From Escherichia coli (lineage in GTDB: Bacteria; Pseudomonadota; Gammaproteobacteria; Enterobacterales; Enterobacteriaceae), in assembly GCF_003334335.1 (NCBI RefSeq), contig NZ_QOWQ01000049.1: a stretch of 30,887 nucleotides of DNA; one strand, given 5' to 3'. The position numbers were made by a program, and so were the translations under genes. The notes under the pieces are model-generated. The model worked only from the letters and a program-made list of their open reading frames with translations, searched no databases and was not told the origin of the DNA. Position 1 is the stretch's first letter. Each line of letters opens with the position of its first letter. Of the stretch, positions 11,623 through 27,924 are shown in pieces.

Positions 11623-11650
11623 GCCCCATTTGCGGGGCTAATTTCTTGTC
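11623..11650 (+). terminator. Intrinsic terminator downstream of rsd
   Basis: 5-bp GC stem GCCCC/GGGGC with ATTTGC loop, followed by the T-rich tract TAATTTCTTGTC. Confidence 0.6.
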
Positions 11651-11735
11651 GGAGTGCCTTAACTGGCTGAGACCGTTTATTCGGGATCCGCGGAACCTGA
11701 TCAGGCTAATACCTGCGAAGGGAACAAGAGTTAAT
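11651..11735 (+). promoter_or_regulatory. TPP riboswitch (THI element) in the thiC leader
   Basis: Contains the conserved thi-box core CTGAGA (11667..11672) and the downstream AACCTGATCAGGCTAATACCTGCGAAGGGAAC segment, about 90 nt upstream of the thiC ATG. Confidence 0.85.
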
Positions 11736-11817
11736 CTGCTATCGCATCGCCCCTGCGGCGATCGTCTCTTGCTTCATCCGTCGTCTGACAAGCCACGTCC
11801 TTAACTTTTTGGAATGA

Positions 11818-17185: not shown

Positions 17186-17439
17186 GACGGAATGTAAGAA
17201 CGTAAATTTATTCCGAGCCGCTACGGAAGATGAAAAACGCAAGGTTGTTGAAAGCGTTGTGTTTTTTTATGGTAGTGCCGTCAGCAGGAATGTTGTCCAG
17301 GGCGAAAAGCTTCTTCCTCGTTTCGCCCTGCCTTTCTTAAAAATTCCGTAATGCAAAGTCTGAAGCCATCGCCTGTTGAGCAATGAAAGAGATCTGATTG
17401 TAAGAGAGTAAATACTCAACTATGATAGAGACGAAAATA

Positions 17440-17601
17440 AGAACACATGTTCTCATCTTCCAGGATGCAGCAGACTGAAGAAATTCAGACATCCCGCAAC
17501 CTGCGATTATCGCAAGGTCAAGGCAAAGTCCGGTAATGGCGTTCTGAATACCAGAGATAATTCTCTGGCGAAACCCACCTTAAGGTGGGTTTTGTTATTT
17601 T
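17440..17601 (+). ncRNA. sroH: Candidate small RNA at the 3' end of the thi transcript region (position matches the sRNA sroH reported between thiH and htrC in E. coli K-12); 5' end not determinable from sequence
   Basis: Two consecutive hairpins (CCAGAGA-TAAT-TCTCTGG at 17551..17568, then AAACCCACC-TTAA-GGTGGGTTT at 17571..17592) followed by TTTTGTTATTTT; the 3' end is well defined. The 5' boundary and the identity are from memory of the K-12 locus. Confidence 0.4.
17571..17601 (+). terminator. Strong intrinsic terminator (9-bp perfect stem, TTAA loop, T-rich tail)
   Basis: AAACCCACC TTAA GGTGGGTTT followed by TGTTATTTT, read directly. It is a good terminator only on the plus strand; on the minus strand the hairpin is followed by CGCC. 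Confidence 0.8.
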
Positions 17602-26675: not shown

Positions 26676-26920
26676 AGGGTTCCTCAGCTCGCTGACAAGT
26701 CGACCCATCTGTCCATTGAGCGGACAGTTTGTGCAACACTATTTTGTTGACCGGAAAATGGAACACTTTCCGCAATGCCTGTTGCTATCACGCTTAAACC
26801 ATTTCATTGCGATTTACACAGAACGGACGTCCTGTCGCAGTATATTAAGTCGTCGATAGAAACAAGCATTGAAAGGCACAGCAGTAGTCAAACAGTGTGA
26901 AACGCTACTGGCGCCTTACA

Positions 26921-26954
26921 GCGCAAAAAGGCTGGTGACTAAAAAGTCACCAGC
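26921..26954 (-). terminator. rplL-rpoB intergenic attenuator (partial terminator)
   Basis: Perfect 9-bp inverted repeat GCTGGTGAC-TAAAAA-GTCACCAGC (26931..26954) which on the minus strand is followed by CUUUUUGCGCU; lies 41 to 64 nt downstream of the rplL stop. Confidence 0.75.
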
Positions 26955-26994
26955 CATCAGCCTGATTTCTCAGGCTGCAACCGGAAGGGTTGGC

Positions 26995-27360
<366 letters not shown>

Positions 27361-27426
27361 TTAAATTGTTCCTGAATATCAGAATAAGTTTATACGTAAG
27401 CGAATGCGTTAAAAAGATAACTGCGA

Positions 27427-27924
27427 TTAAGCAGCTTCTTTCGCATCGCGTACAGCAGCCAGAGTACGAACCAGTTTGCCAGCCGAAGCTTCTTTCATGG
27501 TTGCCATCAGGCGTGCAATTGCTTCTTCGTAGGTCGGCAGAGTTGCCAGGCGGTCGATCTGAGACGCCGGGATCAGCTCACCTTCAAAGGCAGCGGCTTT
27601 GACCTCAAATTTTGCATTCGCTTTCGCGAACTCTTTGAACAGACGAGCAGCAGCGCCCGGGTGTTCCATAGAGTATGCAATCAGGGTCGGACCAACAAAC
27701 GCGTCTTTCAGGCACTCGAACGGAGTACCTTCAACAGCACGGCGCAGCAGGGTGTTACGAACAACACGCATGTATACGCCAGCTTCGCGACCTGCTTTAC
27801 GCAGTTCAGTCATTTTATCTACAGTTACGCCACGGGAATCCGCAACTACTGCAGACAGCGCGCCTTTGGCTACTTCGCTGACTTCAGCAACAATCGCTTG
27901 TTTGTCTTGAAGATTTAAAGCCAT
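27427..27924 (-). CDS. rplJ: 50S ribosomal protein L10
   Basis: 165-aa translation [49 protein letters not shown]... is L10. Confidence 0.98.

Follow-up and report, generated by a model that had tools for sequence, protein, structure and literature searches.

The two adjacent hairpins that follow rplL in Escherichia coli are probably the two stem-loops of a single conserved element, corresponding at once to the rplL 3' UTR, to the tL7 attenuator and to the Rfam family P26, an account that extends to a spacer role for the upstream hairpin. The upstream hairpin was designated hp1 and the terminator hairpin hp2, and we are highly confident that hp1 is a component of the known attenuator and does not represent the RNase III site. 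Because of the match to the Rfam model RF00630 and of the literature on P26 and tL7, the pair of hairpins is to be regarded as an element that is already known and catalogued. The analysis was carried out on a stretch of 30,887 nucleotides (hereafter the window), which carries the E. coli rplKAJL-rpoBC cluster on its minus strand.

The 501-nt stretch surrounding the two hairpins was found with at least 99% identity in 5419 of 5426 complete E. coli genomes, and the RefSeq annotation of the identical E. coli sequence placed the two-hairpin region between rplL and rpoB, with no RNA gene annotated in this spacer. The distance between the rplL end (26995) and the annotated rpoB start (26675) is 319 bp. 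The value of 286 bp given in the initial annotation had to be corrected, as it arose from an ORF list that took an in-frame upstream ATG as the rpoB start; this ATG, at 26708 (-), lengthens the mechanical rpoB ORF by 11 codons past the annotated start (26676-26708). A function of the plus strand was considered and discarded, since all that this strand showed was antisense ORFs judged spurious and a terminator-like match, due to chance, to the hp0 complement. Elsewhere in the window, Rfam searches returned sroH at 17433-17593 (+) with 201 bits and a TPP riboswitch at 11640-11740 (+) with 74.8 bits. A weak terminator-like hairpin at 27409-27436 (-) overlaps the rplJ stop codon, and a minor Term-seq 3' end (MG1655 4180511, window 27409) falls by this hairpin. 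A rplL-rpoB fragment has also been reported to induce filamentation in two independent over-expression screens (PMC3614548, PMC6206680). The coordinates of the features discussed below are collected in Table 1.

Table 1. Features of the rplL-rpoB region, in window coordinates.
Feature	Position	Strand	Evidence
rplL CDS (ribosomal protein L7/L12)	26995..27360	-	ORF list and RefSeq annotation
rplL stop codon TAA	26997-26995	-	ORF list and RefSeq annotation
hp0, CAACC-CUUCC-GGUUG, weak 5-bp hairpin	26978..26992	-	folds: -3.9 kcal/mol, z -3.3
Rfam RF00630 (P26), full-length match	26929..26990	-	74.5 bits vs gathering score 36
hp1, CAGCCUGA-GAAA-UCAGGCUG, perfect 8 bp, GAAA loop	26958..26977	-	folds, repeat search, Rfam consensus helix
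hp2, tL7 attenuator/terminator hairpin, GGCUGGUGACU-UUUU-AGUCACCAGCC, perfect 11 bp	26930..26955	-	terminator, fold and repeat searches
U5 tract of the terminator	26925..26929	-	sequence; in vivo 3' ends
Long interrupted hairpin, ~24 bp lower stem, outside the two-hairpin element	26773..26871	-	fold: -37 kcal/mol, z -3.5
Annotated rpoB start codon	26673..26675	-	annotation; sets the spacer at 319 bp

Three contiguous hairpins, hp0, hp1 and hp2 in this order, come after the rplL stop codon in the RNA, and the whole rplL 3' UTR is folded with linkers of 0-2 nt. hp0 lies directly after the stop codon and has a 0-nt linker to hp1, hp1 is joined to hp2 by the dinucleotide AU, and the terminator begins 39 nt past the stop codon. 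Post-stop hairpins resembling hp0 were also observed in many Gammaproteobacteria. Inverted-repeat searches returned arms of 8 nt for hp1 (26958-26965 and 26970-26977) and of 11 nt for hp2 (26930-26940 and 26945-26955), in both cases 100% complementary and enclosing a 4-nt loop. The initial annotation had described a second perfect 8-bp inverted repeat, upstream of the attenuator on the minus-strand transcript and devoid of a U-tract; its coordinates and sequence were reproduced exactly and the repeat was located 2 nt from hp2. The attenuator with its U-tract had likewise been correctly identified, but the interval assigned to it, 26931..26954, comprises just the inner 10 bp of the 11-bp stem 26930-26955. 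hp2 and its tail form an intrinsic terminator, a G+C-rich stem-loop with a U-tract directly behind it, with 11 pairs (7 G-C), a loop of 4 and the tail TTTTTG. hp1 is followed by AUGGCUGG and, lacking a U-tract, is not by itself an intrinsic terminator.

The predicted stability was -13.1 kcal/mol for hp1 (z -5.8) and -20.5 kcal/mol for hp2 (z -7.4), and the two hairpins together reached -35.9 kcal/mol (z -9.4), a value attained by 0 of 200 shuffled sequences. The 86-nt segment folded with -42.2 kcal/mol (z = -7.9). Both the minimum free energy and the centroid folds returned the same two helices, whose pairs had a probability of 0.99 in a 220-nt context. Each of the two hairpins folds on its own, and their energies add up (-14.2 + -21.7 = -35.9 kcal/mol).

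A covariance-model search aligned the region to positions 1-66 of the 66 positions of the RF00630 model. The consensus of this family consists of a 5' stem-loop, equivalent to hp1, followed by 2 nt and then by the terminator stem-loop, and both helices are present in E. coli. The location also agrees with membership of P26, as the match lies between rplL and rpoB on the coding strand. The model scored above threshold in 10 of 20 diverse rplL loci tested, and matches after rplL were recorded in Klebsiella, Photorhabdus, Vibrio, Enterovibrio, Pseudomonas and others. In the accessible text of Livny 2006 (PMC1524904), P26 was predicted in P. aeruginosa 4 nt past a 366-nt ORF and 151 nt short of a 4071-nt ORF in the same orientation, a context that places P26 between rplL and rpoB in this organism too. 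A later study (Qi et al. 2014, PMC4324240), in its available part, regards P26 as a partial terminator with E. coli tL7 as its homologue. A strong match to a different family, Rfam P27, was observed in the Pseudomonas asuensis locus (L072, 437-621 (-), 168.7 bits), upstream of rplL and on the opposite strand.

The in vivo ends were taken from the curated Term-seq data of Adams et al. 2021 (supplementary file 1, PMC7815308), and genome coordinates were converted by setting the rplL end at MG1655 4180925 equal to window 26995. A 3' end at 4180995 (window 26925) is listed with scores of 61408.7 and 23672.2 in two conditions, and one at 4180997 (window 26923) with a score of 4962.7 in a third condition; according to the printed sequence context, 4180995 is the final U of the U5 tract. 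The spacer has no further curated 3' ends and none at or near hp1, the flanking entries being internal to rplL (4180887) and to rpoB (4183172). The Term-seq comparison that had been proposed as a check thus places the spacer ends at the U-tract, and the assignment of the U-tract hairpin as the rplL-rpoB attenuator was confirmed by a textbook intrinsic terminator with a very strong 3' end on its last U. The rplL-internal end corresponds to window 27033 (-) and has a score of 865. According to supplementary file 2 of the same paper, a bicyclomycin-sensitive region, indicative of Rho, starts at 4181000 (window about 26920), just past the U-tract, with a Rho score of 1.99 and p = 3.9e-46 (PMC7815308). 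A rut-like C-rich tract past the U-tract was looked for and rejected, the excess of C over G being only modest at 26904-26845 (C/G 1.5). The accessible portion of Qi et al. 2014 (PMC4324240) describes tL7 as a partial terminator with about 80% termination, read-through producing the rpoBC mRNA, and states that read-through at P26/tL7 increases in polymerase-impaired rpoB mutants. According to the available text of another report (PMC9765468), the rplL terminator was put to experimental use as a stable terminator with a 5-U tail, a tail that was reported to be too short for Hfq binding.

The conservation of the element was evaluated on the sequence following the stop codon in 80 rplL loci from one-per-species genomes, giving 81 sequences in the counts. 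A loose search detected a terminator of the same kind in 55/81 sequences, while the strict pattern GGCUGGYG...CRCCRGCC-UUU occurred after rplL in 33 of the 81 species, distributed over Gamma- and Betaproteobacteria, and in 0/81 on the reverse complement, so that the terminator stem is kept in sequence and not in structure alone. The terminator 5' arm contains GCTGGTGG, which is the E. coli Chi octamer, in 20/81 species; E. coli itself has GCTGGTGA. A hairpin precedes the conserved terminator in most of the Gammaproteobacteria sampled, with a linker of 0-2 nt in the Enterobacterales, Vibrionales, Alteromonadales and Pseudomonas loci, and its stem often differs in sequence, as in a Shewanella (CCCGA/UCGGG), a Psychromonas (AGUCAU/AUGACU) and Parashewanella (CACUCAAU/AUUGAGUG). 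Betaproteobacteria carry the same terminator stem 16-18 nt after the stop codon without hp1, which indicates that termination as such can do without hp1.

Folding of the 28 nt that precede the terminator gave a mean z of -2.26, compared with -0.07 for a downstream control (49 taxa; Wilcoxon 3e-9), in a test that was alignment-free and used shuffles preserving mononucleotide content only. Covariation was then evaluated with a covariance model built from six sequences and used to align 20 taxa, a MAFFT alignment of 16 elements having misaligned hp1. Seven of the eight hp1 pairs showed changes on both sides, with 88.5% of cells paired; structures slid along the alignment reached at most 49%, and the whole-structure measures exceeded all 500 shuffles. 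These figures are to be read with the caveat that the covariance model fits the alignment to the structure and that the taxa are not phylogenetically independent. The hp1 core (GCC/GGC) is conserved in sequence, and the 15-nt GGCUGAUGGCUGGUG is identical in E. coli and a Pseudomonas. A single copy of the element was present in the window even when 3 mismatches were allowed, which gave no indication of a REP-like repeat family.

The possibility that hp1 is a functionless chance inverted repeat was weighed against these data. Perfect 8-bp inverted repeats are not rare, and a window as long as this should contain about 3 by chance; 7 distinct ones were counted in the 31 kb against about 3.3 expected from a first-order Markov model. 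Nevertheless, a hairpin is found at the same place in many taxa with different sequences, and the 5419 E. coli genomes show no variation in hp1. That hp1 lies 2 nt from the terminator and is conserved in other taxa shows that it is not a product of chance, a reading to which we assign a practically negligible probability. The initial annotation had rather suggested that hp1 might be an RNase III processing site, starting from the notion that the spacer is both attenuated and processed by this enzyme, while fairly leaving the hairpin unassigned on the basis of sequence. Partial termination of about 80% is on record for the spacer, and the processing of the rplJL-rpoBC transcript within it was documented by Barry et al. 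1980, as reported in papers citing that work. hp1 is moreover a perfect duplex without a terminator tail, and coaxial stacking of hp1 and hp2 would make a helix of about 19 bp. However, a duplex of about 22 bp fits into the RNase III dimer, and 24 stem positions make up its signature in vivo, according to the available text of Altuvia 2018 (PMC6212723), so that the 8-bp stem of hp1 falls well short of a substrate. A stacked hp1/hp2 helix would be interrupted by the 2-nt junction and by two loops, Term-seq records no 3' end at hp1, hp1 lies within the P26 element, and it is conserved with the terminator even where the rest of the spacer is unrelated. A canonical candidate exists downstream, in the hairpin at 26773-26871, whose lower stem of about 24 bp is broken by three 1-nt bulges and attains the length of about 22 bp expected of a substrate; both strands of this lower stem are kept in Klebsiella, Acerihabitans and Photorhabdus, and the apex varies. 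On these structural grounds the 26773-26871 hairpin is likely to be the RNase III site of read-through transcripts. The site of Barry et al. 1980 is probably this same hairpin, to judge from the structural fit. The accessible text of Altuvia 2018 and Gordon 2017 makes no mention of a rplL-rpoB RNase III site. The assignment of hp1 as this site, or as a part of it, thus appears extremely improbable, and placing hp1 in the attenuator avoids a mis-annotation.

An alternative-pairing switch, in which hp1 would represent one state (antiterminator or anti-antiterminator) and make rpoBC read-through dependent on rplL translation or on a trans-acting factor, was suggested by the repetition of the terminator base in the arms of hp1, CAGCC and GGCUG occurring in both. 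Blocking the hp1 3' arm frees the hp1 5' arm for pairing with that of the terminator (-7.2 kcal/mol). An 83% match exists between the terminator 3' arm and the hp1 3' arm extended by the linker, and folding of the E. coli sequence predicts a helix between the rplL stop region and the nascent terminator 5' arm. These alternatives do not compete with the native two-hairpin fold, which has a probability of 0.99 and is favoured by more than 14 kcal/mol in constrained folds, and the CAGCC/GGCUG relation is missing in loci where the hp1 sequence differs (L016, L022). The near-tandem repeat GGCUGAU-GGCUGGU at 26929-26963 permits the 83% alternative register, which is energetically uncompetitive. A translation-coupled antiterminator formed by the terminator 5' arm and the stop region, with hp0/hp1 closing a three-way junction, was examined in 55 taxa and discarded, the pairing showing no enrichment (0.147 vs 0.188 for shuffled stop regions) and being absent even in Klebsiella. 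A trp-type attenuator was also rejected, as no competing antiterminator was found and the alternatives were at least 14 kcal/mol worse in constrained folds. Since hp1 has no U-tract and no competing pairing, and folds independently and additively, it is considered neither a terminator nor a switch, and the switch model is very unlikely. Still less credit can be given to P26 as an independent small regulatory RNA acting on trans targets, with hp1 as its body. Rfam files P26 under Gene, a Northern signal was reported in P. aeruginosa in the accessible text of the original description (PMC1524904), and the 3' end at 26925, the one documented end of this RNA, is very abundant. On the other hand, the same text shows that the authors ascribed the multiple bands, of about 250 nt, to overlap with the neighbouring UTRs (PMC1524904), the later work, in its available part, deals with P26 as a partial terminator (PMC4324240), and the 5-U tail is reportedly too short for Hfq in the accessible portion of its source (PMC9765468). 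No promoter is evident, because the element starts 4 nt after the rplL stop, and RefSeq annotates no RNA gene at the element.

The preferred reading, that of hp1 as a component of the tL7/P26 attenuator, can be described as follows. RNA polymerase proceeding from rplL transcribes hp0, hp1 and then hp2, and at the U5 tract about 80% of the polymerases terminate with a 3' end at 26925, the remainder reading through to produce the rpoBC mRNA. RNase III would act on these read-through transcripts at the hairpin of about 24 bp located some 55-150 nt further downstream. hp1 may function as a structured spacer and accessory stem, which together with hp0 would keep the stretch of about 40 nt from the stop codon to the terminator double-stranded, thereby setting the terminator beyond the footprint of a ribosome releasing at the rplL stop. 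With hp0 and hp1 folded, RNase E, Rho or Hfq would find no single-stranded stretch on which to enter, and the very abundant terminated rplJL mRNA would acquire a compact double-hairpin 3' end. This specific role as structured spacer or accessory module is put forward tentatively, as somewhat less than an even chance. In the 49 taxa, equilibrium insulation by the upstream sequence was not detected, the accessibility of the terminator 5' arm being 0.378 for the real sequences and 0.366 when the upstream 28 nt were shuffled (p = 0.32). A protective role would be marginal: exonucleases already meet the stronger barrier in hp2 (-20.5 kcal/mol, against -13.1 for hp1), and the Term-seq data contain no decay intermediate with its end at hp1 (PMC7815308).

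The conservation of the hp1 core and the identity of GGCUGAUGGCUGGUG exceed what a mere spacer would need, and this sequence conservation may point to a factor that recognises hp1, or else to very tight kinetic tuning. hp1 might accordingly be a recognition or kinetic element, such as a pause or anti-backtracking hairpin or a component of NusA- or Rho-assisted termination, which tunes partial termination and balances beta/beta'. The hp1 core and the 15-nt stretch shared by E. coli and Pseudomonas, conserved beyond structure, would fit this idea, as would the terminator stem conserved in 33/81 species, the fixed distance of 0-2 nt between hairpin and terminator, the rise of P26/tL7 read-through with impaired RNA polymerase (PMC4324240, accessible part) and the bicyclomycin-sensitive region from 4181000 (PMC7815308). 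Nonetheless, contact with a factor is conjectural, Betaproteobacteria manage with the terminator alone, chance alone would produce the pause-like G-10/Y-1/G+1 matches seen downstream of hp1, and the Rho signal may come from termination farther along the untranslated spacer; we regard this proposal as unlikely. An equally doubtful extension would make hp1 and the conserved terminator stem (GGCUGAUGGCUGGUG) a sensor recognised by a factor or by the polymerase itself, with hp1 required for a rate-sensitive, NusA/Rho-assisted termination that sets beta/beta'. If true, it would turn the element into a dedicated regulatory RNA module, not a generic terminator with a neighbouring hairpin.

The rplL-rpoB attenuator determines how much ribosomal protein mRNA is made relative to RNA polymerase mRNA and acts as a buffer of polymerase activity, an impaired polymerase leading to more read-through. 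Apart from hp1, the finding belongs to ordinary and well-trodden biology. hp1, however, is kept beside the terminator across Gammaproteobacteria, in part by its sequence, and the question why seems never to have been raised.

Among known systems, the structured mRNA 3' ends that block 3' exonucleases, namely terminator hairpins and REP elements, resemble the present element as stable stem-loops ending an abundant mRNA. Unlike REP elements, hp1/hp2 is present only once in the window, and the terminator hairpin by itself is already the stronger barrier. The RNase III site of Barry et al. 1980 shares with hp1 the same 319-bp spacer and acts on read-through transcripts, but such a site needs a duplex length that hp1 lacks and that the separate hairpin at 26773-26871 provides. 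The closest relative is tL7 (atn), which by organism and locus is the E. coli element itself, its terminator with the U5 tract ending about 70 nt after rplL, and with which the in vivo 3' end on the U-tract and the partial termination are shared. This partial terminator was described by Barry, Squires & Squires 1979/1980 and by Morgan & Hayward 1987, as reported in citing papers, and the accounts of tL7 in the accessible literature discuss only the U-tract hairpin, with no role found there for the upstream one. The likeness to RF00630 comprises the full-length match, the two-helix consensus that includes hp1, and the same-strand rplL-rpoB context. The hp1 of Pseudomonas P26 has an internal loop and a longer apex, whereas that of E. 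coli is shorter, with 8 bp and a tetraloop. Finally, RF00630 was named from Pseudomonas and typed as a gene/sRNA, while the E. coli evidence favours a 3' UTR and attenuator over a free-standing sRNA.
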